Assembly (NCBI GenBank): GCA_965178125.1
Contig: OZ237744.1
Coordinates: 1,240,001 to 1,304,000 of the forward strand
DNA from: Bilabrum cf. latius
Taxonomy: Eukaryota
Length of the DNA: 64,000 nt
Direction: 5' to 3'
A program made the translations under genes and the position numbers. Below, one piece after another: positions 1 to 40,524 of the stretch. Positions within the stretch are counted from its first letter, which is position 1. The number at the start of each line of letters is the position of its first letter. The notes under the pieces are model-generated. The model ran no database searches. It was not told where the DNA came from and saw nothing but the letters and a program-made list of their open reading frames with translations.

Positions 1-3000
1 CAGCTGCCTCTCCTGGCCCTGCGGATGGAGCCCAAGGACGTGAGGAGCAAGCTGGCGCCAGAGGTGGTGGAGCTGCTCGCAGACGAAGAGCCCGCCGTGA
101 TCGTGGCGGCCATGCGGGCTAGCCTGGTTCTCGCCCCCATGCTGCCCCCCGGGGACAGGCGCACCCGGCTGCTGCCCGCGCTCTGCCTCCTGCTTGACGC
201 CGCGAGGGTGCCCACCCGGGTGGTGGCCCAGCCCGCCTCCCCCGCGGCGACCAGTCTGTTCGCCTCCCCAGCCGGCGCGCGGGAGGCGAAGAGGGACCGG
301 CTGAGGGCGAGGTCGCAGGGCATGGGCGGCGGGGCGGGGAGCGGCAGCGGCGGCGGCGGTGGGGCCGGTAAGGGGAGCAGCGGGGGCGCGGGAGGGTCCG
401 GCGGGGGCTCGTCCAAGAGCAGCGGCGGTGGGGCGGGGGGAGATAAAGGGGGGAAAGGGGGTGGGGGGGCTCCCGTGGGTGTGACTGCCGGGGGATCCCA
501 GATCTAGGTCCTACCTCCCGCGCTGGGCTCCCCCGAGGCCGCCGCGGTGTGGTCTGCCTCTGCCTCTGGATCGGCGACGAGTAGCTGGGGGGCCTCTGCG
601 CCGGACCCTGCGGACTACGCTGATGTGTCTGCCGGGGAGCCAGCGCTGGATGGTGGCAAGCGTGACCTGCTGCGGAACTGCCTGGCGCTGGAGTGCCCTC
701 GCCTGCTGCGGCTCTTTCACGCCCTGGGCGACCTGCAGGACCACGACCTGGGGGAGAGGGAGGGGGGTGATGGAGGAGATGCAGATGGAGAGGGGCCAGG
801 GAACAAGGTGAAGCGGGCCGCGGGTCAGAGACGCAGCAGCAGCGCGCACGATTCGCTTTCGGAAGCGGCGCGTCGGGCGAGGGAAGAGGTCGGGGAGGAG
901 GACGCGGACCAGCAGGTGGTGGGGCTGGCCATGGGCGGCTCCGCATCCCCTTCCCCGACGGCCGACATGATGATGATCGGCAGGGCTGTCGGTGCACCCT
1001 CCACGCCCCCGCCTCGACTCGCGGTGTCAACAGCGGTGGATGCAACCGTGCCAGCGTTCGCGTCACCCGCGGTACCCACCCCTGCGGGCATGATGGTGGC
1101 GCTGCTGCAGAGCCCAGAGGCCGGTGGGGCGGGGGCAGGGAGCGGCAGGCAAGTAGGAGCATCATCGCTGCCACCCTCCGCAAGCACCACTGCCCCCACA
1201 AGCGTCCCTTCCCAGTCGTCCTCCAGAGGGCCCAGCGGACTCAGCTTCAGGTCCCTGCTGGGCTTCTACATGTCTCTGACCAGGCATCCCGCCCGCAGGA
1301 TACGTGCCCTCTGCGCATGGGCGCTCCCTGCCTTCGCGGAGACCATGCGAAACAGCAGGCGGCTGGTGCCCCTCGTGCAGTCGGTGGTGCAGCGGCTGGG
1401 CTTCGACCAGGACCCCAGCGTCAGGGCAGCGGCGCTGCAGGCCATCGTGCCCGTGCTGGCGCATATCGGGGGCACTGCGGGCGCGGCCTCGCTGCAGTCT
1501 CCCCTCGCCATGGCACTGACAGACGATGCGCACGTCGTGCTCAACACGGCACTGGATTCGGTACACCTGTGGCTCCCCGCCATTGTTCCCCCGCTACCAG
1601 GGGGACCCGCGGCGCAGCTGCTGCCGGGGCACTGGCACGGGGCCCGGGAGGGCCTGCTGCACCCGCTGCTGTCTCTCCTCGGGGAACACATGCACCGCAG
1701 CAGGGTCGTGCTCAGCTGGAGGAGGCAGCTGCGCGTGCTGGTGGCGCTCAGGCACGTGGCATGCCTGCACCCCTCCCCGGACGTGCACGCGCTACTGCTG
1801 GCCCTCCTGGACAGGGGCCTCTCGGTGGCCGCCACGGCCGGGCTGCAGGCCAGGGCAGCGCACACGCTCGTGTGGATGGCCCGATTTGCCCCCTGCGGGC
1901 AGCTGCGGGCCGGCTTGGAGCAGACGATCCACCACCTGGTTGTTCTTTCGGAGGAGCCTCGGCTCAGGGCGCTGCTGGGTGAGATGGCTGGAGCCGCGTG
2001 CTGGCTGCACTCCCGGCGGGCCGTGTCCTCCGCCTACGTGCCCGCGCTCATCAACCAGCTGCTGGACGATGCCGCGCCACGGGTCAGGCGATCAGCGGCC
2101 TCGGCGCTAGGCTGCATCGGACCGTGGCTCTCGGCCGGGGCAGGTGACCCCGCAGTGGGGCAGGCCCTCGCGGATGTGCGAGCGGCTCTGCATGGAGGCG
2201 CGCAGGACGAGAAACAGGCGGTGGCGGCAGCTGCCCGTCGCGCGATGGATGCAATGACCAAAGGCGGGGGTGGGCCTGCTTCAGGGGGGGCTGCCTCCTC
2301 CTCCTCCTCGTCCTCCTCGTCTCTGGTCGCGGAGGCAGGTGTCCTGCGCGGGGTGGAAGGCCTGGCTCTCGTGGGGTTCCGCTCGATTCCGCAGGGCAAC
2401 GCCGAGGCCGCCACGAGCATGTCAGCGAGCCAGCAGGCGGCCAAGAGGGCCGCAGCTGCCTCTGAGCTGGGGCCTGGGGGGTCCCAATGGTCTGCATTCG
2501 AGGGCAGCCCGTTCGCTGACCCCGTACTGGGGAAGGGACCCCTGGGGGCAGGGCCCCCGGGTTCACCCATCTCCCGGCGAGGTGGTCCCAAGACTTCTCC
2601 CCCGCTGGCTCTCGCGGAGCAGGCAGCGGCGCGCGGGGGCCAGCCCTTCCTACCCTCGGCGTCTGCTATCGCGGGGGCCGGGGCCTTCCGCACTAGCCAA
2701 TCGGGTGGGGGCGGGGCCCAGGGCCAGATGCCTCCACCTGCCACCGCAGTGTACCTTGCGATGGGCCCTCGCCCAGGCCCTACCACCCCCAAAGGGACGA
2801 CCACGAAATGGGGGGAACAAGCCTAGGGGCAGGGGCAGGGGCGAAGTGCATCGCCCCGGCCCCACTCGGGACCTGTGCATGCAGCCGCAGTCGCGGGCGG
2901 TGGCGAGCCCAGCACTCCAGGCGGAAGCAACGCCGCAGCCCGTTTGTTCCCTGCGGTGGTGCTGCCCGTGGTAGGCCCTCCGCCGCCGAGAAGGGGCAAA

Positions 3001-6000
3001 AGAAGAGCCTCTGTGCACGGGTCCCCCTTGGCGGACAGGAGCTATGGCGGCTTGGACGCGAAAGGCCCGGGTTCAGAAGGGCCCGACGGTGGGGGTGCGG
3101 GTGGGGACGGGGACGCAGAGGGCGGCAGGCCCAGCAGGGGGCGTCGAAGAGAAGGAGGTAGGGGATCCGCTGCCTCGGGGGAGGGGGGTCCTCCTCCTCC
3201 TGCCCTCTCTGCCCTCGCTGGCGACATCGCGGGGCAGGCGTCTGGGTCTGGGTCTGGAGCTCCATCCAGAGTTGCTTCGGCGGCACTGGGTCAGGGAGGT
3301 GCTACAAGGAGGCTAGGCTCCGGCGGGAGGGCTTCCTAGTCCTCTGCTGGGCTGGCGAGCACCCTAGGTGTGCTAGAGCGGCTGGGGCACGAACAGGAGC
3401 AGTTGAGCGCGAGCGCCGGGGGCTCGCTGGGAGATGGAGCTGATGGCGGGGACAGCAGCAGCAGCAGCAGCAGCAAGCAGGCAGTGCTCCTCAGTTTCGC
3501 CAGCATGCCAGCCGCCGAGTACCTCGCCCGCCACGGAGCGTTCAGGGCGAGCTTGCTAGAGACTGCAAGCGGGTGGGCGTGCTGCGGGGACCTCCCCTGG
3601 ATGCCTGGGGGGCACATCTCTGCGGGCGCGATCGAGGACGGTGCCGTCGCCAGTGGGAGTGGCAGGCCTGCTGGGGCCCGATCCAGGTGGATTCCCGCCC
3701 ATTCAAGCGAGGAGGAGTCGGCTCGGGTGCGGGCCGAGGCGGTGCTGGCGGAGGGCAAGCAGGCGGAGGACGAGGCGAGGAGGAGGAGGGCGATCGAGCT
3801 CAAGCGGGAGCAGCTGAGGAGGGCGCAGGAGAAGACCGGGCACGCGGGGTCCGGTCTGCTGGGAGGCCGAAGCAGGCACGCCAGCGGGCCGGTGCGGTCG
3901 GATGCGGCTGCGCTAGGAAGTCGAGCGGGGCGCGGGCCGGATGGGGTGGGGCGCATCGGGGGGATCGGGCTGGTGGGGGATGGGGTGCTTGACTTCGCCA
4001 AGATGGTGCTGCTGGATGCTCAGCGGGTGCTGCAGGCGGGGGCAGGCTACAAGTACGACGGCCCGGCAGTACCGAACAGAAACCAAGGCAAGGACCAAGG
4101 CAAGGGTCAGGGCTAGAGGGACGACGGCAAGGCGAAGGGCGGGCCGGTGCTGGGCGGGGGGTCCTCTCGACTCCCAGCCGAGGCCCGCACGGTGTCCTCC
4201 GTGCTCACCTGCGGGGCAGGGGTGGTGGACCTGCTGGGGCACGCGCTGGGGCTAGGCAGCAGCTCAGCCCAGATGGAGAGCGCTGCGGAACACGCGGCGG
4301 CACGGCTGACTGCCGCGGCGAGCTCCGCGGGTCTGGACCTTTCCGACCTCGGACTGTCAGGGGAAGGGGGAGGGGGAGGGACCGGCCATGGGGCGGGTGT
4401 GACCATGGGCAGGCGCCAGGCCAGCTGGAGGCGGCGGCAGGGGTCGTCTCTCACGCTGTCGCCCATGCCCGGGGGCCTCTACTGCTCGGCAGACGGGAGC
4501 AGGTCTGCCCTTGGGAGGGGCTCTAGGGGAGAGGCCCGGCGCAGGGGAGATTTCCTGAGCTCGTATAGGCCCGGGGCACAGGCAGAAAGGGAGAGGCACC
4601 GGCGGGAGGGCTCATCGGGCGAGTCTGGAGCTGGCCGCAGCGCTAGTCCGGTGGGTGCGGGAGGGGAGGGGTCCTCTAGGCGGGCAGGGAGCTCCCAGGG
4701 GAGGAGGGCGGCGGGCGGGAGCGGTGCAGCGGGGCCGAGTCCGGGCACGAGCCCCGCGCGGAGCAGGGCCAATTCACACGGCGCCCGAGGGAACAGTGGC
4801 GCGGGAGGCGCGGGGGCCCTGGGGAGGCTCGTAGGTGGTCGCATGGCCGCGAGCCAGCTGAGAGGCGCGCGATCGGGAGCGGTTGCGGGGAAGCGATCTG
4901 GCGGTCTTCGCCTGGCCCGGGCCCTTGGAGCGGCGCGGTTGGGCGGGCAGCAGGAGGGCGGGGTTGGGGGCGCGTAGGAACAGCCTGTCGTCTCGGACGC
5001 AGATGCGGGAGCAGGTGCAGGTGCAGGTGCAGATGCAGATGCAGCTAGCTTGGTGAGCGAGGGGGCCGGGTCAGACGCGGATGCAGCGGCCAGGCCTGCA
5101 GCCGGAGGGCACCGGCAGGGAGGTAGGCTCGGGGGCGGGCTGCGGCTGCGACCCGAGGCAGGATCACGGCGGGCAGGCTCAAGGCGAAGCTTGAGCTAGA
5201 GTGCTAGTTTCTCCATGGGCAGTGGCAGCTTCTCAGATGCCGTGGGGATCGTGGTTAGCAGAAGCAAGGGGTCGGACGGGGTGGATGTGGCCCATGCAAG
5301 CTCCGAGGTGCGAGGTGACGGCCCAGCCGCTGGTGCTGAGGGTGGCCAAACTGGTAGCAGTGGTGCTAACGGTGCGCCCGGGGCGGCCGCGTCGGAAGGT
5401 GGTCGCATCATGCGTCGAGGACTGCTGGGGAGCCAGCGCGGGGCAGTGCGAAAGCTAGGCAGGATCGGGTCTGGCAGTCGGGCACCCAGTGGCGGCCTGC
5501 GGGACAGGTGGGGCCGGCATGCGCACCTGGGGCACGGGCACGTGGTCTCAGATGGCGGCCGGCCGGTGATTCACCGAGCAAGCACCACTGGCGCGTCAGC
5601 TTCAGCGTCCAGATCCTCGGCAGGGTCTCACAGCGTGTCGGGGGGGGTCGGGGTCGCTACGGGTAGCGTGGAGAACACTCGTGGAGGAGCAGGAGGAGAA
5701 GGGCAAGGACAAGGAGGGTAGGGTCAGGACGTGCTGGCCGGCCTCTCCGGTCTTGCTCGGGGCCGTGGCCAGGCTCCACACTCCGCGAGAGAGATGGGGC
5801 CCCGCCTGTCGATGGCGCAGCGCATGGACAAAGAGGCAAAGGTGGCTGCAGGGGCAAGGGCAGCGGCACAGGCTGGTGCTTCTTCCCGAGGACCCGGAGC
5901 ATCCAAGGTTCTCGGTGGCGGATTGCCGCTGGCGTCACCGCCGCCGAAGGGGGATGCGCTGGACGCTGAGATGGCGGCAGTGGCTCAGGGTGGCCCGTTG

Positions 6001-6240
6001 TCTGCCCCTGTCAAGGGGGCCTCGGGCCGCACTGGGACCGGTCGACTTGGTGGTGCAAGAGGGCACCGGTCGACAGTGGGTGCTGATGCAGATGGGACCA
6101 GTTCGCCCTTCGGGGGTGGCTTCGTGCCCGGGACACCTCCAGTTGGCTCGACCGAGAAGTCTGCCATCAGCAGCGCTCGCTCCAACTCGCTGGTGGGCGG
6201 GGGGCATCGAGTGCTAGGGGCAGTAAGGCAGCAGCCGTGA
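1..6240 (+). CDS. HEAT/ARM-repeat protein, protein phosphatase 4 regulatory subunit (PP4R4/PP4R1)-like, with long low-complexity C-terminus; 5' end outside window
   Basis: ORFs starting at 25, 547, 2875, 3370, 4147, 5215 and 5731 share one frame, separated only by TAG (505, 2824, 3337, 4114, 4975, 5197, 5719); ends TGA 6238-6240. HEAT-like motifs: HPARRIRALCAWALPAF, DQDPSVRAAA, LSWRRQLRVL, DAAPRVRRSAA. Confidence 0.65.
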
Positions 6241-6256: not shown

Positions 6257-6340
6257 CCAGTCTTCGAGAAGCGACCAGAGTTGTAGATCCAGAGAGAGGA
6301 GAAGAAGAAGGATCTGGTGGTGGCTGCTAAACCATATCCT
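6257..6340 (+). repeat. 84-bp direct repeat, copy A (non-coding copy of the subtilase 3' end)
   Basis: Matches 13506-13589 without gaps, 7 mismatches in 84 nt. Confidence 0.9.
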
Positions 6341-6579: not shown

Positions 6580-7992
6580 TTAGCTCAACGCACACACACA
6601 CCCTTCAATGTTCTGTATCGCATCTTTCCTGTCTACTTTATACTCACTCGCTCGGTATATCGCGCGCCTCCGTACCTCGCGAGCCATCGACCGACGCACC
6701 AGCATCGCGCACTCATCGTGCCCATTCCACACTGCTGCCTCCATCGCGTCCCGCGTTGACCCACCCATTTCCACCTTCCTCTCTGCACCGCCTGCCATCA
6801 CTCCCAGCCTCAGACGCTTCGCCAGCTCCAGCGGCCTGCCCTCCGCTGCAGCCCGCCACACAAGCCCCGCGTCCCTTTCGGCCTGCCACGCTGTGCGATG
6901 CTACAGCAACACACCTATGCGCTTGCGACGGTCGTTGAAGGCCCGCAGGCGGGGCAGCAGTGCAGGCATGGCTAGTTCCTGGTTGTGCGATCCGCACAAA
7001 GCTCCCCACCAGAAGTAGACGATGCGCGGGTTGGCCAACACTGCGTCCAGCATCCTGCCAAACTGCCGGTCAGCTTCCTCAGGACGATCCGGATCCATCG
7101 ACGATCCCATTTGCAACGATCGCAATGCCTGATTCTGCCTTATCGCATCGCACAGCAGACCCACGCGACAAACAATTGGCAACCTCCCTGCATGCATATT
7201 ATAATAGAACTTCATGTGCCGGATACTCCTGTTCTCGCGCACGATGCGGGCTCCGCACTCGCCCAAGATCTCATGGACCATTATGTTGCCCGTGTTCGGC
7301 AGAGTGATCCAGCTCATCTCCAGCTGCACCAGCGTGCAGTTCCTACTAAGCGCTTCAGCCCATGCCAGCACTACAGTGTGGTCCACGGTGCACTTCGACA
7401 GGCGGCAGCACTGGATGCTCTTATTGCACCCGATCGCCTCGGCAATGAGACGATTGCTCTTGTACAACTGCTGCCTGGCCTCTGGGGCAGTGGGCCGCTG
7501 TCCGAGCACGTAGTCTATCGTTAGCACCTCCAGACTGCACTGCGGGTCGGCGAGCACTGCATGCAGTGTTTCAGCGAACTCGACGGGTACAAAATTCAGT
7601 CCATCTAGAGTGAGGGCTCGCAGCCTACTCCTGCCACCGGCGTACAGCATGGCAGGCGCCAGGGCGGTCATGGCTCCCGGCTCCCAGCGATCAAAGCTCA
7701 ACTCTAAGCATGCCAGAGGCGGGCTGTCGTCCACTGGATCCATGCAAGCTGATGAGCATAGCAATGATGCTACGCCTGATTCCATGCACTTTGTTTGAAA
7801 TCTCAATGACCGCAGTCTTACGCCATCTGATCCAAGAGCCGATACAAGTTGCACCATATCAGTGTGTTCCATTATTCTCGGTAGCGTCACAATGGAGAAT
7901 CCCGCTTTGACTGCTTTCAGAGCCTCGTCGACGTCATCCCAACTCCCACCGAAGTCTCGCCGCTGGTAGCTGCGCAGTCCTGTGTATGGCGC
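6580..7992 (-). CDS. RNI-like leucine-rich-repeat protein with a C-terminal ankyrin-like repeat; 5' exons uncertain
   Basis: ORF 6901-7890 has RNI/NLRC3-type repeats (AEALSRNCTLVQLEM, DAIRQNQALRSLQM). It reads through TAG 6901-6903 into same-frame ORF 6580-6861 with ankyrin-like LVWRAAAEG...MEAAVWNGHDECAMLV. Ends TAA 6580-6582. Confidence 0.65.
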
Positions 7993-9090
7993 CTACGAGA
8001 AACAGTGAGATATGGTTGACACGACATAATTAGGATTTGCAAGAGACAAAATCTTCACTGTACTGAGCATGGGTTGCGTACATACCAGGAAGTGGAAGTC
8101 GAGCGAAGGTTGGATGTAACCTTCTATCTCCCATGCAAACCTAAACATGACTTTCAAGAAATAGCTCTGGGTTGATACAGTGAAATTCAGCGGGCTAGGA
8201 AGGGAAGTTTTGAACTGCTGTGAAATGAACAGGTGAAAAATGTTAGGGAAAGCCAGAACCAGAATAATTTGTAGGGTAAAGAAACCACACAAAGTAATGT
8301 TATGTGTACACGACTGTCACAACAAAGGCAGTTACTGCCAACGCATTCATAACGTATTGCTTGTTTTTGTAGTTGATGCTCAATGATGAAGCAGGGACGC
8401 GGCTGCGCCAAGGGTTTCCTTTACCGATCACAGGAACTTGTCATCATGAATCAGCGCAAACCATGCAATCACTGCAGTTGCCAAGCTTGGTCATACTTCA
8501 TGATCATCTTATGATAGTGGCATACATAGGTTGGACTTGGAAGACGTGGTTCGTTGCGCCTTGCAGTCGGCAAGTTGGGGAGAGGTGGAATCTAAGTCAG
8601 TTGCACCTTCTCGCAACGGGGTAGTACAATGAAAGGCATATCGCCTCCTGCAGTGTATCTATTACATGGTGAATTCAAGTTGCAAACGGCATTGAATCCA
8701 AGTTGAATTGCTTGATCTGCCATGCATTGGCTAGGATCTCCCTGGCCACGCGGTAGCAACAGGTTCATGCAACTTGTATTCTATTTGATGTGGTTTGAAG
8801 CCGCGTATAAGCAGTACATGACGATTCTTGCAAGCCTTTCTTGCATTCCATACAATCTTGGAGGCGCAGTGCTGCTATCGAGGCTGACTTGGGAACACGA
8901 GCAGAGACGGCTTGTTCCACGGATGAGCTAGTAGCTCGGAAAATGGTACCCGTGATAGCCACGAGCGACATTGAGCTAAGCGATTGTGTCTTGGCGCCGC
9001 GCGGTGCGACCGTCAGACGGAGGTTCCGTTTCTTCGCGACATCGGATGCCAGGGGAGAAAGCTGCGGTCGCGGATCCACAGCCTCCAAGC

Positions 9091-12000
9091 ATGCAGAAAG
9101 CAGCAGTTCTTTGCATCATGACAATGTGCATAGGTGCTTCCATCGGTAACTCAACTTTGTCAGGTCGCGGCAAGGCGAGAAGGCACCGAAAGACGGGCAG
9201 AGATCAGGCAGTTTTGCAATCACAAGGTGAGCAGTAGCGGCGGCACTTTCGCACCTGATCGTCATTTCTCGGCTGCACACTGGATCTGAATATCCAAGTT
9301 TTCATTGGGTGCTGCTTGTCGCCATAAATCTTCTCTCGCAGACCCGAGCGATCCCGTGGAAGGTTCAGGCGCTGCTCCCGCTGGCTCCACGGCGGGAAGC
9401 GGTCCCTCGCATGAGGGGGCTGCTGACTCGCATGACTATTGTGAGCACATGATCTTTCATGTGGATACATTCGACTGGTCCGAGGGGCGGAAGCTGATCG
9501 TGTCTGCCATGCGCACTGATCCCAGGATCGTAGGCAGGCTGCTGGCCGATGCCGCCGGTGGGCTGACAGAGGTCCTCAAGAAGCCCCACGCCCCGCCAGT
9601 GACGCAAGAGGCTCAATCAGACACATCTGAAGTGTCTGCGGTCGGGGATGGTGCTGGTGAAGATACTGAAACGAGTATAGTCGCTCATGGACCCGACTTT
9701 GTCACAACCGCCACCCCTGCTGCCAAGGCAGGGCCACCCAACAGCCGCGACTTTACGGAAGAAAGCAGCATTGTCGAGGAAGCGCGTTTTCTTGCCGCCC
9801 GGAGGCCGGACGACGACTCTGCCACGACCCCCCCCACCACCACCAGCGGTACCGGCCGTACCGACCTGTGCACGTCCAAGGCCGCTGCCGTGCTGGCCCA
9901 GGGCAGGGGCAAGGCGGCCCGGGGCGTGCTCGAGCCTCTCTGCTGGATCTAGGCTGGCATCTAGTCATTCCTGGCTGAGTCAAGAGACGGGCCTGACAGC
10001 GATATTGGTCGCCAGCTCGCCATGGCGGTCGCAGCTGAGGCCCAGCGAGCCGCGGCTGTGTCAACGGGCGTGCTGCTGGGAAGTCTCCCTGATCTCAAGA
10101 TGACCTTCCAGTACCACCTGAGCATCGGCGGGTACCTTCCGAGCCGCAACACTGTCCACGGCCTCCCGCCGTCATTCAGCCAGGCACTCTTGTCTGAACT
10201 GGCCCGGAATGAGGGTGGAACTCGGGCTGGGGCTGGGGCTGGGTTGAAGTCTGGGGCAGGACTTGCTGGTCTCACGCTGGATGTGGTTCTGAAGGTGCTG
10301 TCAGAGCTGCGTGGGCTGGGTGAAGCAAGCGCTGGCAGCGGCATTTTCATTCCACAGCCAGGGGTGGTTGGCATGGCAGTGTGTACATCTCCTGAGCTTG
10401 CCAAGTCGCTGGAGGAAACCGGAAGCATCGGGAGCATGTATGAGGATCTACCCATGCAGCTCGCCAGCCAACCGGCGCACCTGCGCGGCTCGCCGGACGT
10501 GCATGCTGGTACCAACGATGTCCATGCTCTCCCCCCACGCAACTCCTCTCTTCTGCATCTAGATGCCTTCTCGGCTGCCGGTAGTACTTTGGCTCCACCG
10601 TTGCATGGCGTAGGTGAACCTCAACTGCACGATGCTGGAGCTGCTGTCACTTCCAGTGACGGTGCAGACGAGGATGCAGTGGTAGGAAAACACGGAGGTG
10701 CAGCGTCGGGGTCGGAAGGTGGCTCGTCGAGTGCAGCTGCCCCGTCGGCTGATCAATCGGCTATCTCCCCAGCAGGTCACTCTGGTCCATCATCTGGAGC
10801 TGGCGCTGATCACGGACCTGGAGACAGTGCAGATGTAGCAGTAGGTGGGGCGGCAGCTTGCGCGGAGGATGGTCGCCCTGCTGTGGTTACGGACCGACAC
10901 CAGGTGGTATTCATTCTTGACAGTGGCGTGCACTGTGGCTTCAGCGGGTTCCAATCTAGAGTGGGCGCATTCGACTGGATGGAAAGGGCTCTCTTGGAGG
11001 CCACGGGTGGTCGAGCTGATCAGTCGATGAGCAGAGTCTCAATGGGTGCCTCCATGCAAAGCCCTATCAGCCACAAGACATCCAGATCCAAGAAATTTGA
11101 CGTCGATATTGGTATTGCGTCTAGACCGGCTAACTCAGATGATTTTCATGGGACATCAGTTGCGAACTGTGCATGTGGGGGACAGGATTCCATCATCGTG
11201 CCTGTGCGGATCATAAGCGATCTATGGAACCCCGAGCAAGGTGGCTTGCCATGGGATGAAGAGCACCAGCTTGTCCACCCGCTGCACGGTGCCAAACCTG
11301 ACCCCGGAAGTCTCTTAACTCGTGACAAAGAGGGTAGGACTCAGTAGCAGCGAGCATCGTTTGCCGGCTGGGGACTCGCTGAGATCGTACATATGGCACA
11401 GAAGGTGCGATACACCACAGCTCGCGCAATGGGTGCAAGGTTTCGTCCGGGATCCATGCTTGGTGCAGTCAATATGGCCGTTGGGAATTGGAATGGGAAT
11501 GAGCAGGATAGAGAGGTTGTCGGGGAGGTACGAAGGCCTATTCTCCGGAGGCATGAACTGAGAAGAATCAGAGCCGAGCTGAATCACTTTTCGGGTATTT
11601 TGATGGATGCAGGCTTTGTGCTAGTGGGGGCAGCCGGCAACAACCACATGGATGCTGCTCACACCTACCCATGCAATTGTCCCCACGTCATTTGTGTTGG
11701 ATCCCATGCGAGCCAGGTGGCAGGCCTGGTTCGGATGTCATCGTTCTCGCACTACGGGTCAACAGTTGACATATTTGCCCAAGGAGAGAATATCCAACTG
11801 GTCGACCTTGAGTCGTTGGCGATCAAGGGTGAGACACGAGGAACGTCGTTTGCTGCGCCGCTGGTGACTAGATCCCTAGTGGCCATGGCTGGCAGCCTAG
11901 GAAGAGTTCGAGTTGACAGGGCACTTAAGCTCCTGCAGGCCAACAACGAGGAAGCGGAGCTGGCCGTCGCACAGGATCTCTCTGGCGTATTCAGTGCGGT

Positions 12001-13591
12001 GGAACTGGACAAGCAGTACGAGGATACTGTCGAACGTGGAAAACGTACTAGGCTTGTGATGAGGGACATGGTAGCAACCGAGAAACCGTGGGTGATCCCT
12101 GAAAAGACTTTGCTGGAGGTCCGCTGTGAAGGTTGCCGAGGCACTGACCAGTGCGATCCCATGATGGGAATCTGTCGATGTGGCTGCTTCATGTACTGGG
12201 ATGTAGCCTCTACAGCTTGTCTCCCAGCGGATACCCACCCCGGAGTTCACTTGATGATGCAACAAGACGCTGTTGACAGCCAGCATGGAGCTTGGACTCT
12301 GGAGGCGAAACAAGTCGGCCAAACAGCAACCGCTGCATGCAGTGAGAACACCTGCAACATAGCAGTCGAACTATCGACGTCTGCTGCAAGCGATAAGAAT
12401 CATTTTGCTGCTCTACTTCGCATCGACGCTACAGATTTGCACCATCGCCTAGCAGATCAAACCGCAGGAAGGCGTAGAGGCGCCTGCATTGATGGCGATG
12501 GCATCGCACAAAGTGAAAGTCTCGATGTCTTCGGCACCGATCATGCTGCAACACGTGATATTGCTCCTGAACACCTTGAGCTGGCTGGCAAGGCCTCTGA
12601 TCACGGAGAGAGTTTGGGTAGTGGCTTCATTCGCAAAGGAGAATCGAGAAGCAGCTCTGAGCACAGTGCGAGGGCTGTTGCTGCGTCTGATCGTGGAGAG
12701 AGTTTGGGTAGTGGCTCCATTCGCAGAGGAGAATCGAGAAGCAGCTCTGAGCGCAGTGCGAGGGCTGTTGCTGCGTCTGATCGTGGAGAGAGTTTGGGTA
12801 GTGGCTCCATTCGCAGAGGAGAATCGAGAAGCAGCTCTGAGCGCAGTGCGTGGGCTGTTGAAGCGTCTGATCACGGAGAGAGTCTTGGTAGTGGCTCTAT
12901 TCGCAGAGGAGAATCGAGAAGCAGCTCTGAGAACAGCGCGAGGGCTGTTGCAGCGTCTGATCACGGAGAAAGTCTGGGTAGTAGTGACTCCAGCCGCGGC
13001 ATATGGGCTGCCAGCGCTGATATTGGAAGCAGTAGACAAGCAGAGGATGGCGCTCATGTTGACCCAGGAGTCATTGAATTCAGCCCTGTGTCAATTAACA
13101 CGGGTAGAGTCGAATGTGTCGCATCGGCGGAGCCGGGAGCTCCACCTGCATACATCGAGCTGACAGGTATGTGCATCTAGCAATCAGAAACTGAAAGCAG
13201 ACTGCATGATGTAGATCTATGGCTTGAAGTGCTTGATGGGTGCCCATGGACTTGTGGCAATACGCAGATGGGAGCATTTGCTCGTCTTTCTAGGCGAGTC
13301 CGTCCATGTGGAGCCGAGGTCCAGCAGGAATCCATCAGAATTGGTGCATACAAGGGCGTGTCTGATAGGGGTGGGGGGGCAAGGCAGTCATGCTAGCCCT
13401 TGGTCGAAAGAAGTGCTGAGGAGCCGCTTAGGTGGTTTGTCGGCGCTACCGTGGATGATCCGTCGCTGTACGTGCACTTCCATGCTATCGGTCGCCTCGA
13501 CGGGACCAGTCTTCGAGTAACGACCAGAGTTATAGATCCAGGAAGAGGAGAAGAAGAAGGATCTGGTGGTGGCTGCTGTACCATATCCTAA
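9091..13591 (+). CDS. Subtilisin-like S8 serine peptidase with Cys-rich/EGF-like segment, 30-aa tandem repeats and C-terminal CCTIS
   Basis: Catalytic motifs VFILDSG (D), DFHGTSVA (H), AAGN, GTSFAAP (S). Predicted exon 9091-9226 (hydrophobic N-terminus), GT-AG intron 9227-9341 in phase, then one frame to TAA 13589-13591 broken only by TAG (9950, 9962, 11345, 13178, 13394). Confidence 0.85.
12596..12984 (+). repeat. Coding tandem repeat, 90-bp unit x ~4.3 (SDRGESLGSGSIRRGESRSSSERSARAVAA)
   Basis: Units begin near 12596, 12686, 12776, 12866 and 12956; near-identical at DNA level. Confidence 0.95.
13506..13589 (+). repeat. 84-bp direct repeat, copy B (last codons of the subtilase)
   Basis: Matches 6257-6340. 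Confidence 0.9.
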
Positions 13592-16962: not shown

Positions 16963-19900
16963 ATGTCTGGAGCTGGGAGGAGATCGTTCGGTGGTGCAGC
17001 CAAGGGAGGCAGGGGTAGGCATGGAAAGGGGACACACGGCAAAGGCAAATCGAAATCGATCGGGAAGGGGAGAATCGCCACGTACAAGCGGGAGCAGTCG
17101 GAAATCGAGGAGCTCAAAGAGAGAATCAAGACTGAATTGCCAGAAGCAGGCTCTCAGGACACGACATCAAAGCTTTTTTCCGACTTGCCATTGTCACGAT
17201 ACACCTTAGGAGGTAAGATATCGCTTATCGTTATACCATACCAAATGTACATTACCATATTCTTTGGATACTCTGTTATCTTCTAAAATCGCCCCGCAGC
17301 ACTGTAGAAGAGCAAGTTTACTGACCTGACTGAAATATAGCGCGCTGCAATTCCTCATGCTCTGGCGGGCCGAGATGTTCTGGGTGCAGCCAAGACTGGC
17401 TCTGGCAAAACGCTGGCATTTCTAGTCCCAGTCCTGGAGCGCCTGTACCACGAGCGCTGGGCCGCTGAAGATGGTCTCGCGGCCCTGGTGATCAGCCCCA
17501 CTCGCGAGCTGGCCATGCAGATCATGCAGGTGCTCCGCCAGGTGGGCGCGGGCCACCGCAGCCTTGCAGCCGGGCTGGTGACCGGTGGCATCAGTTTCTT
17601 GGAGGAGCAGAAGAACATCCGCCGGATGTCCATCCTGGTGGCCACCCCCGGTCGCCTGGTGCAGCACCTCGAGCAGACCCCCGGGTTCGGCCTCGAGGAG
17701 CTCAGGGTGCTGGTCCTGGACGAGGCGGACAGGCTGCTGGACATGGGCTTCAAGGAGAACCTGAACGCCATTCTAGAGGCCACGCCGGGCCCCCCGCAGC
17801 GGCAGACGCTCCTGTTCTCCGCCACGCAGACCCGGAGCGTGCAGCAGCTGGCCCGCCTCTCTCTGACGGCCCCCCAGTTCGTGGCTGTGCACGACAAGGC
17901 AGAGGCGGCCACGCCCAGGCGGCTGGCGCAGGCGTTTGTGGTGTGTCCCCTGGGCGACAAAGTGAACCTTCTCTGGAGCTTCCTCAAGTCGCACCTGCGG
18001 CACAAGACGATCATCTTCGTGTCGAGCTGCAAGCAGGCCAGGTTTTTGTACGAGGCTGTGCGGCGCATGCGACCCGGTGTACCCGTCATGGAGCTGCACG
18101 GGCGCATCCAGCAGCAGAAGCGGGTGGGCATCTACAAGGACTTCTTGGCGAAGAAATCAGCGGCGCTGTTCGCGACGGATGTGGTGGCCCGCGGTTTGGA
18201 CTTTCCCTCCGTGGACTGGGTACTGCAGCTGGACTGCCCCGAGGACGTGGAGGCCTACATCCACAGGGTGGGCAGGACCGCCAGATTCAGGCAGCAGGGG
18301 CACGGGCTGCTGGTGCTGCTGCCCTCGGAGGCGCCTGGCATGGTGCCCAAGCTGAGGGCAAGCAAGATCCCCGTCAAGAAGACGGCCATCAACCCTGACA
18401 GAGCAGTGTCCGTGGTGGGCAAGGTGGCCGCCGAAGTGGCCGCCGATGCGCACCTGAAGCATCTCGCGCAGCGCGCCTTTGCCTCGTACGTGCGCAGCGT
18501 GGTGATCTCGAGCGACAAGGAGGTGTTCAGGGCGGAGGAGCTCTCGCTCGACGAGCTGGCCGCTTCCTACGGGCTCCCCTCTACACCCAAGGTGCGAGTG
18601 CCCAAGTCGGCGCTGGACAGAGAGGCTGTGCGCGCCGAGAAGAACAAGAGCAAGCAGCTGAAGGAGCTGGAGGCGGCCATGGCCAGGGCCAAGGAGGAGA
18701 GGAAGAAGAGGAAGGCAGCCAAGAGAAAGGCGCTGGAGGAAGGGGAAGGGAAAGGGGCTGTGGATGCGGAGGCAGGTGGGCCCGCGAGCGGGGCGGGGGC
18801 AGGGGGAACCATCGACGATGGGGAGGATAGCGCCAGCAGCGACCCGTTCGGCGACTCGGATGAAGACTCCGATGAGCTCAGCTCGGATGAAGAGGACTCG
18901 GATGAGGATGAGGATGAAGAAGAGAAGGAGGAGTGGGCATTCGAGGGCGGTGGCGGCATGGGCGGGGTGGGCGCGGCAGGGTCGGACGGCGAGGAGGCCG
19001 AGGGTTTCCAGGCCCTGGACGACGAGAAGCTGGCGCGATAGGCTGCCTCGACCGGGTATGGTCTGACCAAGCCGCAGGCCATGCGTGCATCGGACCGTGC
19101 TGGAGCTGGGCGCGGGGATGCTGATGATGGCAGCGAAGAGGAAGACGAGGATGCAGTGTTCGTGAAGTCCTCTGGCCTCAGCGAGCTGGCCAGGAAGGCA
19201 CTGGGAGATGACGAGGACGATGACGATGATGAAGACGGGGAGGATGAGGAGGACAAAGACGCAAACGGGGGCAACCATGAAAGGGGTGGTGCAGCAGGGG
19301 AAGCAGTGGCATCGTCCGCCTCTGGTCGGGAAGACAAGCTTCGCAAGCAGCTGCTAGCGGGCGTCTCACTGTCTGGCATGCTGCAGCGGGAGCGCAAGAA
19401 GTTGTTGGCTGCCACCGAGCAGACGATCGAGATGCGGAGGCAGGCAGAGGCCGCTGCGAGGGGAGAGACCAGCATGGGCTTGCGCAGGCTGGCCGTTTAG
19501 GTCGCGGCGGAGGCGGAATCCGGCGAGGGCAGCGGAGACGGCGGCATCGTGAAGGCGGGCGGTGTGGTGGCCACGGAGGCGCCACCCTCTGCGGATGCCC
19601 TCGCGGACCGGCTGTCCTCTTTGTCCTCTCGATTGCACGAGCGGCTGAAGGAGGCGGACGTGGAGGACCGGCGCGCGGCCAAGGAGAGGGTCAAGGCCAA
19701 GCACAGGCGGGAAAAAATGTTGGCCAGGGGAGAACTGCCCTCGGACGATGAGGGCGAGCTGGCCATGGCTCCGAGGCTGCCTGGCGCAGGTTCAGGGGGA
19801 GAGAGCGACGGTGAGGGCGAGGGCGAGGGTGTGGATGACAAAGAAAGTGAGGTTGACTTGGGGGGTATTTCTGGTGGGGTTGCGATGCTGGAGGGCGACG

Positions 19901-29277: not shown

Positions 29278-30843
29278 TCACCTGAATTCTCGTAGAAACT
29301 CTGCCATACCCTTGTCGCTGTCTCCTAACTGCACCACGCGCACGTCCGGCCACCGCTCTTTCCGAGAGGAAAACCGGACCGTCTGCTGGGCGAGCGCCCC
29401 GCACACGCCTCCCGAGCCCAGCTCGAGAAACAGCACCTCCCGCTGCGGCTCGCCCTCGCCCTTGGCATTGCCCTCGCTTCCCGTTCCAGTATCAGCCACC
29501 TTTCCCCCGGCCAGGCCCAACGCTGTCTCTAGGCACTCGGTGAAGCGCACCGGAGCCACAGCCTGCAGCACGGCCAGCTCGGCCAGCTCAACGGGCTGCG
29601 TCACCGGCTGGGCAGTCACGTTGCTGATCAGCGGGGCCTCTGTGGCCAGCTCGAGGAGAGGACAGAGGCCCGAATCCATCCCCCGCCGCCTCAAGCTGTC
29701 CGGTGTCCACGCCTCTGTTCCCTGGAGCGACTCCGGGTCCAGGTGGAGCCTCCCCGCCCAGCCCTCCGCGTGGGCCCCCTCGATCACGCGCAGAACAGCC
29801 GCCCTCTCCCCCCCCGTGAGGGCACCTTCCTCCGGACCGCCCTCCCATGGACCCAGCAGGCCTGAGACCGGAGGATGCACCGGTCCCGGCCCCGCCTCGT
29901 CTTGCCCAGCGCTCCCTGCTCCTGGGCCCGCTGGCCAAGCCCGCATGGCCGCGGCGAGTACGAAGGAGGCAGACCGCATGGCGGGCGTGTGGAAGGGCGC
30001 GCTGACCTCCAGCTCGGTGGCTCGGCGGGCCCACTTGTGTTCCCTGAGGTGGTCTGCCGCCTGCTGCACGCAGGCCCGAGTGCCGCTGATCACCACCTGC
30101 GCAGGGCTGTTGAGATTCGCGGCCCACACGCCCCGCAGAGGGGTCGATTGGTTCGACCTGCGGACCTGGTCGCATGCATCGTGCACGGCATCCACGAATG
30201 ACTGGCCTCCCGAGCCACTGGCAGCTTGTTTTACCCTCCTGGGATCAGCGGTGAGGGCCATCATGCAGACATCGTCGCCCATGAGCCTGCCCGCTGCCTG
30301 CATGGCCCGGCCGCGCAAGCGAAGGAGCTGCGCTATCGCTGTGGTGTCCGCCTCAGACTACGTGGCCATCGCTGCAAATTCACCGACTGAGTGGCCAAGG
30401 AGAGACGCATACTGGATCCCCGAGCCGCTCCTCGCCGATACACCAATCTCCTTCCGCAGCACCGCCAGCGTTGCCATCGAATGTGCAAATAATGCTGGTT
30501 GGGTAATCTCGGTCTGCCTGAGTTCTTCCTGCGGTGTAAGATGCGCTGCTGTCAATCAATGCAATGTCGTGGTGCAAATGCTGGAGGACTGGCATGCTAC
30601 GTTACACTCTGCTGGTCTCACTGCTGAGCCATCGAACATGATTCTCGACAGAAACATCTGCAAAGCATCGTCAACTTCCTCGAGCACCTAACGCGCAGCA
30701 GGGAATGACTGCGCAAGGTCCTTGCACATGCCGGGGCGCTGGGAGCCCTGTCCGGGGAACGCCAGGATTGCCGTGTGCGCGTATCGGAAGCCAATCCTTG
30801 GCATGGTTTGCATTCGTCTTTGAATAAGCCGCCGTAGAATCAT
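29278..30843 (-). CDS. MCAT: Mitochondrial malonyl-CoA:ACP transacylase (FabD)
   Basis: FPGQGSQ, TQPALF, GHSVGEF, RGRAMQ, ANLNSPAQVVISG, VSAPFH, PVRF, ELGSG. One intron; TAGs 30688 and 30358; Arg-rich N-terminus. Confidence 0.92.
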
Positions 30844-31212: not shown

Positions 31213-34200
31213 TCACACCCCGTCCCCGTCATCCGCCAGCATCTCGCTGACGTACGCGATGTCCTCCGTGGGGTGCCTGTAGAGCCCCTGCTTGAGCCTC
31301 TTCTGGTCCAGGAAGTGCCCCATGAGCCCGATGGACCTCCCCAGCACGAAGAGCCCGTTCAGGCACCCGTTGGAGATCACCTCGTCGGCCTCCTCCTTGG
31401 AGAAAGCCCCGCAGCACCGCATGAGGTCCACGAAGCACACCGCGATGCACCCGTCCACGTTGAGGATGAGGTTGGGCTTCTTCTTCGTGGTCTTCTCCTC
31501 CACATGCAGCGCGAAATCGAGCACGGGGCACTCGGGGAAGTGCTCCTGCGCGTACTCCTTCACGATCTCCACCCTCTTGTCGGGGTTGTGGATGCTCTTG
31601 ACCTTGTGCCCGATGCCCATGATCAGCTTGTGCTGCTTGCGCATCTCCGAGACGAACCCGCCCGGAGTCAGGCCCCGGTCGTACGCCTGGCTGAACTGCT
31701 TGGCTGCCCCGTCCAAGGCTCCACCGAACCTGGGCCCGATGGTCAGCAGCCCAGATGCCAGGGAAGAGATGAGATCCTTGCCCGCGCGAGCCGCCACGAT
31801 GGTGTTGTGGGCCCCCGCCACCGCGGGCCCGTGGTCGGCCGTGACCATGAGCACCATCTCGATGAACTTGGTGGCATACGGGGGCAGCCTCCTCTTGAAC
31901 CAGAGCAGCGACAGCACGCCCCCGATGCCCAGGTCCTCCTTGAACACGTCCGAAATCTTCATGCCGGCGTACTTGAGCTCCTCGCCGCGCTCGTCGCTGA
32001 TCGTAGACACGAAGGCGGCCGGCTTGCGGATCAGCCCGAGCTGCTTGGCCCAGTGGTAGTCCATGGGCAGCTGCGGGGGCGTGATCTCGGGCCCCTCCAC
32101 CACCGTGCCGTCCGCCACCAGGGACTGGAACGTGTCCCCGATCTTCACGGCGAAGTCGTTGAAGTTCTCGGGCACCACCGCGCCCGCCTTGCGGAGGGCC
32201 TCGTTCTTGGCGTCTGCCGTCTGGGCGGCCGAGCCAGCGAGGGCGCCTGCGTGCCCGAACTGCACCTCGAAGGGGAAGATCTTGGCGCAGGTGCCGATGC
32301 ACCACGCGATCACGGGCTTGGTGATGCGACCCTCCTCGATGGCCTTGGCCACCGCGTACTCGTCCGTGCCGCCCACCTCGCCCAGCAACACCATCATCTT
32401 GCAGTTGGGGTTGCGCTGGTACCGCATGAGGTGGTCGATGAACCTGCTGCCGGGGTACCTGTCTCCTCCGATGGCAACGCCCTCGCACACGCCGTCGGCG
32501 TGCTTGGCCATGATGTTGTTGAGCTCGTTGCTCATGCCTCCGCTCTTGCTCACGTAGCACACGCTGCCAGGGCGGTACAGCTTGGACGCCACGATGTTGT
32601 CGATCATGCCACCAGTGTTGCCGATCTTGAAGCAGCCGGGCTTGATGCCGCCCACAGTGGCCGGTCCGATCACCGACACGCCCTTGTCGTCGGCTGCCTG
32701 GATCAGCTCGCGCGAGTAGTGCTCGGGCACGCCCTCGGCGATGACTGCCAACGTCCGCAGCTGGGGGTATTGCAGCGCCTCCATGGAGACCTTGTGCGCT
32801 GACCGGAGGGACGCGAAGTTCACCAGCACGTCCACCTCGGGGTGCTTGGCGCACGCGTCCCCGATGTCCCTGTACACGGGAATCATCACCTGCTCCTGGC
32901 CCCAGTAGAACTGCTGCATGTGCTGGCCCCCGAACGGGTACAGGATGGCGGCCACGGAGGGGGTCTCTCGCCTGCACAGAAAGTCGAAGTCAAGCATGCC
33001 CTGCACGGCCCGCAGCTGCATCCCGTACACGAAGGCCCGGGTCTTGCGGCTGAACAGGTCCCACGGGCCGCTCACCGTCCGTCTCTCCAGCTCCTCCGCA
33101 GACCGCTCGTCTCCGAGCGCCTCGGCACCCTCGGAACCGGCCGCACCCGAGCCCGCCGCGGCCGCTGCGTCGTCCCCACTCGATGGCTGCCTCTCCATGT
33201 CGGCCCGCTCGGCGGACCCCAGAGACAGCGCCGATCCCACGCGGGGCACGCCCCCCGCCGAGGGCCCCGCGATGGCCGCGCACGCCTTGCTGAAGTCCTC
33301 CGCCGTGCCTTCTTTGAGTTCGTCCAGCGCCTTGGGCACGATGGCCGTGATGTGCGTCTCGGGCCCCCGCACGTTGACAGGGACGCCCAGAGTGCGGCCC
33401 AGCTCCCGCATGAGCCGCAGCCCCTCCACGTAGTTGGGGCCTCCGCGGCGCACCCAGATGCTGACCCGGTGCGCGCGCAGCTGCGCCGCGAACCCCCTGA
33501 GGGCCCTCATGATCCCGCGGAATGTCTTGGCCACGTCGGTGAAGTTCGCGATGCCCCCTCCCACGATGAGCACCTTCCCCGCCATGCCGCCCTCCTTGAG
33601 CCGCTCCGTGCCCGGGCGGGTCATCAGCGACAGCACCGTCTTGGCGTACTCGAAGGTGAGCGCCTCGGAGGGAGCGCCAGAGTACTCGCCGTAGTTGGCC
33701 AGCTCCTTGCCGAAGCCAAGGTCGCTGATCGTGTCGGCGTATACAACGGAGGCACCCCCGCCCGCCACCATGGTCCACACCCGGCCCGTGGGGTTGAGCA
33801 CCGTCAGCTTCAAAGAAGACCCCGTCTTGGCGTCCAGGTCTTTGATGTACTGCTCCTCGGGGAGCGGGGGCTTCCCGAAGGACTGGGGGAACGTCAGGTG
33901 GCGCACGCGCATGCCGGCGCCTGCACCGGCACCGGCGCCTGCATCGCCCCCCGCGCCGCTCGCCGCCCCGCCGGCCGGTTGCTCTGGCGCGGGCAAGTGC
34001 TCTGCCCACTAATCCCCGCACACGAACTCGGCGGCCTCGTCAATTTTGGCTGCCATGTCCAGAGGCACCGCCCTGCAGGAGCGAGCATCCCCCTCCCCCT
34101 CCACCAGCAGCACCACCGGGTTGATCTCAAGGTACACAAAGTGCAGCGCGCGGTACAGCTTGAACAGCGCCGCCGTGAACTCGGCGGCTGCGGCCTTCCG

Positions 34201-38300: not shown

Positions 38301-40248
38301 TCAGCGTGGCCAGGTCTCGGGGGGCGGCCCTGGACTTGCCCAGGCACAGCCGCTGGGTGCACCGCTCCACGTCTCCGATCTGCGATAGGACGGATCGGAC
38401 TGCCTGGCGGAGTGCTTGTTCCCTGGAGAACAACTCCACGGCGTCCAGGCGTGCACGGGCGGGGCCAGCGGCGGCGAGTGGGGCGGCCAGTCGCGCGTCC
38501 AGCATGCGGGAGCCCCCCGGGGTCTTGCAGCGGTCTATGGCATGCAGCAAGCAGCCCTTGCCTCGCCGGGGGCCCACCGCGGGTCTATGCAGCTCCAGGG
38601 CCCTAGCTGTGGGGGCGTCCATGAGCAGCACCGGGGGCCTGCGAGGCACTGCAAGGCCACCAGGATGCTGGCCAGAGGACGAGGAGGCTGCCTGCTTGGC
38701 ATTGGGCCAAGGCCTGCCACCGTGCTGGGAGCCCGGGCCAGCTGATCGACCGTCCCTGGGCTCCCCCGTGCCTGCCTCCTCGCCCTCATCCCTGGCATCC
38801 TTCCCCTCCAGGTCCAGCACTGCGGGGGGCGGGAAGCGGAGCACGGGGGCATGTGCCCTGGCTCGCAGTGCAACAGAGGGCATGGAGGCAGGGGCGGGCA
38901 CTGCCAGCTGGCTGTCCTGTGTCCACTGCCCTGCCGTCTGCGTCCACAGCACGTATCGCAGCGCCGATGCGGCGGCTTCCCTCTGCTCGCCGCTGAGCTC
39001 CCCCCACCACTCATAGCCACGAGAAGAATCCAGCCCTTGACCTGTCCCGGCAGTGCTCTCGGCTACCCCTTCCCGCTGGTCCTGCTCCTCCACCAGTACC
39101 CTCACCTCGGGAGGAGGAGGAGGGGAAAGGGCGAGCATCCCGCCTTGCCCGCAAGCCAGTGCACCCGCGCTCTCGTCCAGCCCGAGCATATCTTCATCTT
39201 CAGGTCCAATCTCGCCCATGGACGAGCCGTGGTGTTCCACCCCCTGCACTGTGGTCACGCAGCACCCCTCAAGCCCAGGAGCTGTCCCCGCACGCAACGC
39301 CCGTAGTAGATCGGTCACCTCCTTGGCAGCAGCGGGAGGGGCCGGCGTGCCTCTGGGACGGCGTTGCGGGCTGGGGGGAGCAAGCAAACCGTCTGCACCG
39401 GCATGTGGTTCGTCCGGCGGCCTCCACTCCGCGACTTCCCTTGGCAGCAGCACCTCCGCCGGAGGATACCTCGCCAGCGCGCCAAGGGCCTCGGGCAGCG
39501 GGCAGGAAGACACCATGAACCCACCCGTGGACACGTCTACCCAGCACAGCCCCGCACGCACACCGGACCCAACAGATGACGGGCTCTCTGCAGCACTGCC
39601 AGCCGCTCCTACTCCGGGAGCGAGACAGGCCATGGTTAGCTCCGCGGGATCCACCCAGATCGAAGCCAGGTAGTTGTGCTACCGAGGCCGCAAGATGGCA
39701 TCATCGGTTGCAGTTCCAGGGGTTATGATTCGGGTAAGCTGCCTTTGAACCAGCTATTGCGTCGCGGACTTGCGTCCCTTGCTAGGCTTTGGCTGGCCAG
39801 CGGAGCTTTGCGCAGGTATCTGCTCGCAAATGGCAACTTTCAGGCCTGCTTTCAAAAGCTTCGCAATGTGCCGATCTGCAGAATGCATAGGCATACCGCA
39901 CATAGGAATAGGAGTCCCAAGGTGCTTGCCGCGTTGTGTGAGCGCTATTCCAAGCACCGGAGCTGCTGTCTTCGCATCCTAAAAGAAAATTTCAAAGAAT
40001 TCACCCATCTAGAAGAACAAGATATGCCCTCGGAGTCGCGGGTTACTTCTCAACTGCACATACTACTTCATCATTGGGGTAGGGGGAACGGTTGAGCTGA
40101 GGAAACGGCGGTGATGCACCGAGCACCTCGTGTCCACCCTTGCATGGCGTCGAGCAGCAAGCGCCCAGCGACGAAGCAGGTGCACATTCGTGGGTGCTCG
40201 AAGGAACGGACGACATATCCGCCCCCAAGCCTACCGCACGCGATTCAT
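35377..40248 (-). CDS. MSH1: Mitochondrion-targeted MutS1/MSH1-type mismatch repair ATPase (no GIY-YIG domain seen)
   Basis: One frame with 10 TAGs (40231, 40063, 40009, 39979, 39754, 39679, 38161, 38113, 37750, 37270). [70 protein letters not shown]. Arg-rich presequence. Confidence 0.88.
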
Positions 40249-40524
40249 GCGGAGGGTGCGAGCGATTGGGGCGTGGTTGTCCTCACTTTTGTGGCGGTTC
40301 AAGACCCTGATGATGAGTGCCACCACTCGCACACCACAGCACAGTGCATCGTGGAAAGGCTGGGTGGTCCAGTGCAGTGAGTACAGACAATGTGGACATA
40401 TCAACACGAAAAGACTGGCCTCACACATCACCAACCTGTTGCCCTCGCCCTTTGGGGGGCCGCTCTTCCACACATGCGCCACAGGCCTTAACACCACTCC
40501 CGCTGGCACCCGCAGCCCGGGAGT

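Follow-up and report, generated by a model that had tools for sequence, protein, structure and literature searches.

Evidence that UAG specifies glutamine, with UAA and UGA kept as stop codons, in the nuclear genome of Bilabrum cf. latius

The codons UAA and UAG nearly always change meaning jointly. The few exceptions concern ciliates, one fornicate and one rhizarian, and most of them are known from transcriptomes or from assemblies that are incomplete. Nuclear codes in which UAG specifies glutamine (Gln) while UAA and UGA terminate have been described in Iotanema spirale, Hartmannula sinica, Trochilia petrani and Protocruzia tuzeti (PMC5304391, PMC11687900; here and below, statements attributed to published work refer to excerpts of the papers cited). 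Iotanema, which belongs to the Fornicata, shows no UAG termination, uses UAA as its main stop, and carries the change T32G in the release factor eRF1; its tRNA(CUA) was only predicted, the data being a transcriptome (PMC5304391). In the other three species the same assignments arose independently beside standard-code relatives, and neither H. sinica nor T. petrani yielded a suppressor tRNA (PMC11687900). UAA ends 86.9-98.3% of the genes of five recoded phyllopharyngeans, which is the reason the authors give why UAA cannot be reassigned in that group (PMC11687900). UAG has also been decoupled from UAA in the rhizarian exLh and in phyllopharyngean metagenome-assembled genomes from TARA, where it encodes leucine (PMC5304391, PMC11687900). 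We examined a stretch of 64,000 nucleotides from Bilabrum cf. latius (GCA_965178125.1, contig OZ237744.1, positions 1,240,001 to 1,304,000 of the forward strand, G000:C10:1240001-1304000 in our labels; 62% GC), hereafter the window, for which a sequence-only reading had proposed that UAG is translated as Gln while UAA and UGA are stops. The eukaryotic assembly from which it comes comprises 48.6 Mb in 111 contigs and has GT-AG introns.

That proposal was borne out beyond the window by dyneins, Ras-family GTPases, kinases, Arf proteins and eRF1. We put at about 93% the probability that the nuclear code is of the table 15 type, with UAG read as Gln everywhere, UAA and UGA as stops, and UGA roughly four times commoner than UAA. 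The codon meaning, the stop usage and one tRNA(CUA) gene are established at the level of sequence. Compared with Iotanema, UGA rather than UAA is dominant, T32 of eRF1 is kept, the tRNA gene is in hand, and the lineage is unrelated. UAA ends about a fifth of genes here, unlike in the recoded phyllopharyngeans, and a tRNA(CUA) gene was found, in contrast to H. sinica and T. petrani. The code type itself is known; this case differs in its lineage, in having TGA as the commonest stop, in the availability of a genomic sequence for the UAG-Gln tRNA, and in the closer resemblance of that tRNA to tyrosine (Tyr) than to Gln tRNAs.

The meaning of TAG was read from dynein heavy chains. Of 19 matches, 16 were fetched, and 15 of these are single open reading frames (ORFs) of 4,300-5,200 codons when TAG is read through. 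They were aligned to 120 outside dyneins, and log-odds were summed over conserved columns. TAG stood opposite Gln in 22 of 41 such columns, as did CAG in 258 of 468 and CAA in 32 of 57. The log-odds for TAG were +9 for Gln, -80 for glutamate, -125 for leucine and -149 for Tyr, so that neither leucine nor glutamate columns, as codes with UAG as Leu or Glu (exLh, the TARA genomes, PL0344) would require, were supported and Tyr was excluded; the same test assigned 61 of 61 sense codons correctly. One dynein (D142) alone contains 58 TAG, 77 CAA, 107 CAG and no TAA, and a 4,857-residue Cafeteria dynein has Gln at 8 of 15 aligned TAG sites. The switch-II Gln is encoded by TAG in 8 of 30 Ras-family loci, and one TAG of eRF1 falls where 108 of 110 homologues have Gln. 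These comparisons confirm Gln as the predicted residue inserted at UAG. TAG makes up about 9% of Gln codons, and its share rises as GC content at third codon positions falls, as expected for a codon reached from CAG by mutation.

TAA behaves differently inside genes. In the 15 dynein ORFs, less the first 300 codons of each (65,067 codons), we counted 254 TAG, 379 CAA, 2471 CAG and no TAA; table 6, in which UAA is also Gln, predicts about 39 TAA. Although the ORFs were cut at TAA and TGA, they reach the conserved C-terminus, and the zero is therefore not circular. A manual tally of 148 kinase matches gave 85 TAG, two TAA and three TGA; all five TAA and TGA codons, and one TAG, are intron overhangs at match edges. 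The sole TAA in 65 Ras matches is intronic. Within the window, 24 in-frame exon stretches totalling 15,757 codons hold 57 TAG, 85 CAA, 529 CAG and no TAA, as the sequence-only reading had stated; about nine TAA would be expected if TAA:TAG followed CAA:CAG (P about 1e-4). For orphan ORFs this zero is in part circular, as TAA or TGA defined their limits. The earlier figure of about 65 TAG is plausible, several short 5' exons having been left out of our count. Conserved genes with an internal TAA at Gln positions, named beforehand as the finding that would overturn the proposal, did not appear.

Gene ends could be anchored by homology at 45 places outside the window, of which 35 end in TGA, 10 in TAA and none in TAG, in keeping with the stop usage that had been predicted for conserved C-termini. 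In the Ras family, 20 of 30 loci have a prenylation cysteine motif directly before the stop (16 TGA, 4 TAA, the latter after CVVS, CGC, GCC and CMIL); the loci left out are three non-terminal or unclear exons and seven motif-less ends, all TGA. Each of the 16 dyneins stops where its homologues do (13 TGA, 3 TAA), one of them as QLDD-TAA like its Hondaea and Phytophthora homologues. Among 18 Arf/Sar loci, eight end no more than 10 residues past the domain (6 TGA, 2 TAA); we excluded seven upstream exons or duplicates and three long-tailed loci (2 TGA, 1 TAA). Two tandem Arf1 paralogues stop at the same position, as QLKA-TGA and QLKG-TAA. The eRF1 gene ends DDFI-TAA, like its Ectocarpus homologue. 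TAA is thus a regular minority stop, at about 10-22% of ends, and its description as rare was overstated. The high GC content of the genome is the most likely reason why TGA predominates. Dual-meaning codons are depleted near gene ends (PMC11687900), whereas TAG is not depleted here, occurring 8 times in the 2,250 last codons (30 each) of 75 genes against 357 in 88,586.

In the window itself 21 ends are TGA and two are TAA, comprising 18 TGA and 2 TAA together with the ends of spliced CCDC22, a minus-strand pectate-lyase-like copy and EMC4, so that nearly all are TGA, as had been claimed. Both TAA ends that had been singled out are present (Table 1). They are nonetheless the weakest evidence available for TAA as a stop, since neither is homology-anchored: the ORF called a leucine-rich repeat (LRR)-ankyrin gene has no Pfam match, and the CaaX-like CCTIS at the end of the subtilase sits in the second copy of an 84-nt direct repeat, far beyond the PF00082 domain. 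We rejected the CaaX reading on account of this local repeat; the 5' end of the subtilase, spliced from 9224 to 9340 across a GT..AG intron in runs X5-X7, resembles a signal peptide by eye. No run is registered as RNA; we guess X5-X7 to be so, spliced joints being seen in them and none in X4. Spliced contigs from X5 and X6 show the window TAGs unaltered, which argues against editing, although such contigs drop rare variants. Contigs of both runs cover 17298-18739 and contain the TAG of DDX10/Dbp4 without other letters. This codon stands at the Gln of the DEAD-box Q motif.

The CUA-anticodon tRNA that had been predicted exists as a single-copy gene with a clean cloverleaf on the minus strand of another contig (G000:C23:907607-907679, 69.8 bits). 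It was found in an Rfam tRNA search in which 63 of 780 candidates were scored, yielding 48 hits that include one tRNA-Gln(UUG) and two tRNA-Gln(CUG). No tRNA(UUA) was present among these 48 hits, nor among 50 hits to a UUA-anticodon pattern (46 for a control) that misses intron-bearing or long-arm tRNAs. ARAGORN, run on 37 of the pattern hits, found only Lys(UUU) credible as a tRNA at a hit; the other 13 are one mitochondrial Lys tRNA and 12 copies of two dispersed repeats. One dispersed repeat, with a 28-nt core that fits the tRNA pattern, occurs in about 30 places on many contigs, with some 200 bases common to several loci, and by eye some copies adjoin reverse-transcriptase-like ORFs. A GAU anticodon is carried by two tRNA-Ile genes of the nuclear genome (L011, L043), which is unusual for eukaryotes, where AAU is expected.

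Compared over 55 positions with 23 other nuclear tRNAs, those for Trp, Leu, His and Asp not having been recovered, the tRNA(CUA) is closest to Tyr(GUA), with 39 identical positions against 33 for Gln(CUG) and 31 for Gln(UUG). It shares with Tyr(GUA) 12 of 14 acceptor-stem positions (6 of 7 pairs), C1:G72 and a 5-nt variable loop, while its D arm resembles those of Gln and Glu tRNAs and the discriminator base is a G in place of A. Eukaryotic Tyr determinants are given as A73, C1-G72, G34 and U35; bacterial Gln determinants include G73 and U35, and none is given for eukaryotic Gln in the excerpted table (PMC9976931). Loss of G34 and A73 would remove Tyr identity. A Tyr-derived suppressor charged with Gln is a reasonable reading to which we would give slightly less than even odds; its rivals are a diverged copy of a Gln tRNA, a chimera, or a donor among the tRNAs that were not recovered.

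One eRF1 gene was found (G000:C35, L001:1068-2941), together with pelota. The predicted protein, with exons joined at inferred GT-AG sites, was compared in an alignment with 110 homologues and numbered as in human eRF1. The changes G29A and N30D occur in none of 105 homologues, G29A depending on the inferred junction of exons 1 and 2; I35V, S60V and K130H occur in none of 110, and N129S, L126M and L69Q in 10, 15 and 3 of 110. At each of these positions the common residue is found in a sequence labelled Bicosoecida sp. CB-2014. The N domain contains two in-frame TAG codons, one of which encodes the Gln at position 69. In yeast, L69A slightly favours UAG read-through and N30A has no effect; N129 has been proposed as the reader of a third-position G (PMC4381064). 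Position 69 is also changed in exLh, to alanine (PMC5304391). The changes seen here are candidates only for a presumed loss of UAG recognition. Comparison of the glutaminyl-tRNA synthetase (GlnRS) with the human enzyme gave no obvious adaptation, the anticodon-domain motifs looking conserved.

These elements would fit together as follows. GlnRS would charge the tRNA(CUA), whose C34 would pair with the G of UAG and not with the A of UAA, leaving UAA free for termination, and eRF1 would be weakened on UAG through the changes around the GTS loop and the NIKS helix, so that the tRNA would win at UAG. The tRNA(CUA) of Tetrahymena is restricted to UAG (cited in PMC5304391, PMC10553269). One may speculate that residual UAG termination at the TAGs within the eRF1 gene itself would give negative feedback on eRF1 levels.

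Several observations weigh against a table 15 code with the mechanism just outlined. The eRF1 keeps the GTS motif including T32, and also E55, NIKS, S70, and Y125, C127 and F131 of YxCxxxF. Two of its changes were rejected as recoding markers: Q69 is also present in a plant eRF1 structure in a standard-code setting, and V60 occurs in four metagenome contigs in which TAG is not recoded, one of whose eRF1 genes ends in TAG. (Those four contigs, L178-L181, have a dense, intron-free, virus-like gene content and read TAVNIKS in place of TASNIKS.) The acceptor stem of the tRNA(CUA) is unlike that of the genome's Gln tRNAs, matching Gln(CUG) at 6 and Gln(UUG) at 2 of 14 positions, and the tRNA search was incomplete. 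When 534 kb were scanned by a homology-free Markov test, a single TAA was flanked on either side by coding-like DNA, against 48 TAG at the same threshold; the test is weak for TAA (about four expected), and a stricter codon-score test yielded too few cases. That TAA lies at G000:C2:428541-428543, midway in a single-copy, membrane-protein-like orphan ORF of 533 codons, with coding scores of 0.22 and 0.26 on either side and no start codon nearby. No homologue of this gene was found in the genome itself, in metagenome contigs, in Pfam or among 1.84 billion representatives. An assembly error or a nonsense allele is the likeliest source of this TAA; a 15-nt GT..AG intron or read-through would also explain it.

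The orphan ORF holds the one internal TAA that could speak for table 6, in which UAA and UAG would both be Gln, UGA the sole stop, and TAA merely scarce from GC bias. The dominance of TGA at gene ends and the lack of homology anchors at the two TAA ends of the window fit such a code too, and the table 6 systems (Tetrahymena, Hexamita, ulvophytes) share with this genome both UAG as Gln and a tRNA(CUA). They also have UAA as Gln and a tRNA(UUA), neither of which was found here, the tRNA having been looked for among 48 model and 50 pattern hits. The dyneins lack the roughly 39 internal TAA that table 6 would require, TAA follows directly on CC, CXC or CaaX motifs in four GTPases, on QLDD of a dynein and on DFI of eRF1, and the Arf1 paralogues stop with TGA and TAA at the same position; table 6 is already largely refuted, and we give it practically no chance. 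A milder version, an early step towards table 6 in which UAA usually terminates but in certain contexts is read through as Gln, would draw on the same orphan ORF, coding-like on both sides of its TAA, single-copy and with no start codon near, and on the presence of tRNA-Gln(UUG). It depends on a single case that other causes would also explain (assembly error, nonsense allele or short intron), in a gene with no homologue by which to judge it, and seems to us extremely improbable. UAG could instead be dual, Gln inside genes and a stop at a minority of ends, as in the context-dependent codes of Condylostoma, Blastocrithidia or karyorelicts, or as an ambiguous intermediate with a leaky eRF1. The kept T32, the single tRNA(CUA) gene and the scarcity of TAG in abundant proteins (0 of 27 in mtHsp70 and 1 of 29 in citrate lyase, against about 9% of Gln codons overall) would suit this, and a few TAG stand 2, 7, 12 or 16 codons before the next stop, where it is ambiguous which codon terminates. 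Yet none of the 45 anchored ends is TAG, an outcome with a chance of 0.009 if TAG ended 10% of genes; TAG is not depleted near ends; and up to 58 TAG in one dynein, with two in the N domain of eRF1 itself, need efficient decoding. A dual UAG is therefore very unlikely, and UAG as Gln throughout, with UAA and UGA as stops, is the reading we retain.

Judging from one nuclear gene, we regard this small flagellate as a bicosoecid stramenopile close to Cafeteria. A dynein fragment had its best named match in Cafeteria roenbergensis, at 68% identity and 2953 bits, other named stramenopiles scoring about 2140, and a quick single-gene tree of 23 rows, with its careful search unfinished and no bootstrap, groups it with Cafeteria and one unnamed protein (Shimodaira-Hasegawa-like approximate likelihood ratio support, SH-aLRT, 100), making Cafeteria roenbergensis/burkhardae the closest named relative in both the search and the tree. 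Contig C111 is a mitochondrial genome with a tRNA-Trp(UCA), which agrees with the report of UGA as Trp in Cafeteria mitochondria (PMC6972860). In the excerpts of that paper a non-standard code is mentioned for C. roenbergensis/burkhardae in the mitochondrion only. The mitochondrial cox1 was rejected as a lineage marker, its best matches being environmental proteins (94% and 89%) and the sole organism-named match Saprolegnia (78%). A second 18S rRNA gene (G000:C95:6099-7900), 83% identical to the array on C12, suggests that a co-cultured eukaryote is present in the assembly; we take this gene to be dinoflagellate-like.

AT-rich inserts (25-38% GC) at G000:C1:619000-639000 and C21:636000-650000 encode a virophage-type major capsid protein (PF22031; PDB 6g45, E=3e-55) and an rve-chromo integrase, and the same 28-mer is also found at C36:468914 and C40:341204. 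The structure 6g45 is that of mavirus. Endogenous mavirus-like elements are known from Cafeteria (PMC8547959), and the inserts resemble them. On C1, 16 ORFs end in TAA (14) or TGA (2), with no in-frame TAG among 176 Gln codons, and the C21 stretch has 8 TAA, 2 TGA and no TAG. These ends fit TAA as a stop, and without TAG the elements are readable under both the host and the standard codes. The absence of TAG may reflect recent arrival or selection.

The features of the window that bear on the code are collected in Table 1.

Table 1. Features of the window, in window coordinates, that bear on the use of TAG and TAA
Feature	Position	Strand	Basis
HEAT-repeat gene, 7 in-frame TAG, TGA end	1..6240	+	
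Direct repeat of 84 nt, first copy	6257..6340	+	no further copy among fetched loci
TAA of so-called LRR-ankyrin ORF (ORF about 6580-7990)	6580..6582	-	sequence; no Pfam family
Subtilase-like main exon, 5 in-frame TAG, TAA end 13589-13591	9341..13591	+	PF00082, E=1e-12 on 10892-11917
Direct repeat, second copy, encoding the CCTIS end of the subtilase ORF	13506..13589	+	92% identity to first copy
In-frame TAG in T-E-I-[TAG] of DDX10/Dbp4	17338..17340	+	PF00270 from residue 15
In-frame TAG within acyl-transferase domain	30358..30360	-	PF00698 residues 8-94; TAG = residue 66
In-frame TAG in ATP-citrate lyase	34009..34011	-	PF24948 residues 69-176; TAG = residue 175
MutS-family gene, 10 in-frame TAG, no TAA, TGA end	35377..40251	-	
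In-frame TAG in MCM8 winged-helix domain, 24 codons before TGA	52374..52376	+	PF25051 residues 858-933

The two copies of the 84-nt repeat flank a 7.2-kb segment of lower GC content (53-58%) with two divergent genes, which may be a cassette that was inserted or duplicated. In run X4, a contig piece that looks like a paralogue matches 6683-6852 with 19 differences. CCDC22 has a 541-nt intron (13831-14371) near its 3' end in runs X5-X7; the gene ends at a TGA near 13780, and the in-frame TGA at 13982 is not its stop. An OsmC-pirin fusion gene lies at 24318-25850. A pectate-lyase-like gene is present as a convergent inverted duplicate (52644-54156 on the plus strand, 54262-55650 on the minus strand), the plus copy having a TAG two codons before its TGA; this TAG was rejected as proof of near-end read-through and is uninformative, since the inverted paralogue, against expectation, does not align there.

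We found no nuclear code variant reported for a stramenopile in a literature search whose coverage lacked most subscription journals, nor by term look-ups in excerpts of PMC11412368, PMC6972860, PMC13768787 and a Halocafeteria preprint (10.64898/2026.06.25.734631), and such a variant is probably not in print. A broader proposition, which we offer tentatively and consider rather unlikely to hold in full, is that this is the first non-standard stramenopile nuclear code, and that it arose in a GC-rich genome with UGA as the main stop when a copy of tRNA-Tyr(GUA) became CUA and was remodelled into a Gln acceptor (A73 to G73, a Gln-like D arm, C1:G72 kept). Such a route would be one not described for natural UAG-Gln codes. 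The proposition would also mean that a split of UAA and UAG can be stable without the lock of an indispensable UAA, and that virophages stay translatable by having no TAG.

A large-contig assembly that holds the tRNA(CUA), eRF1 and GlnRS genes, beside a cultured standard-code relative in Cafeteria, makes directly testable how an eRF1 drops UAG yet keeps UAA. The dominance of TGA tests the published idea that UAA is kept because nearly all genes depend on it. If the reading of the tRNA is true, a tRNA that inserts Gln yet has a Tyr-like acceptor stem would call into question the assumed derivation of such tRNAs from tRNA-Gln(CUG), and the same molecule bears on the identity elements of eukaryotic Gln tRNAs, which are blank in a 2023 review table. 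Annotation under the standard code would fragment the genes of this genome, and bicosoecids become candidate hosts for giant viruses in which TAG is recoded.

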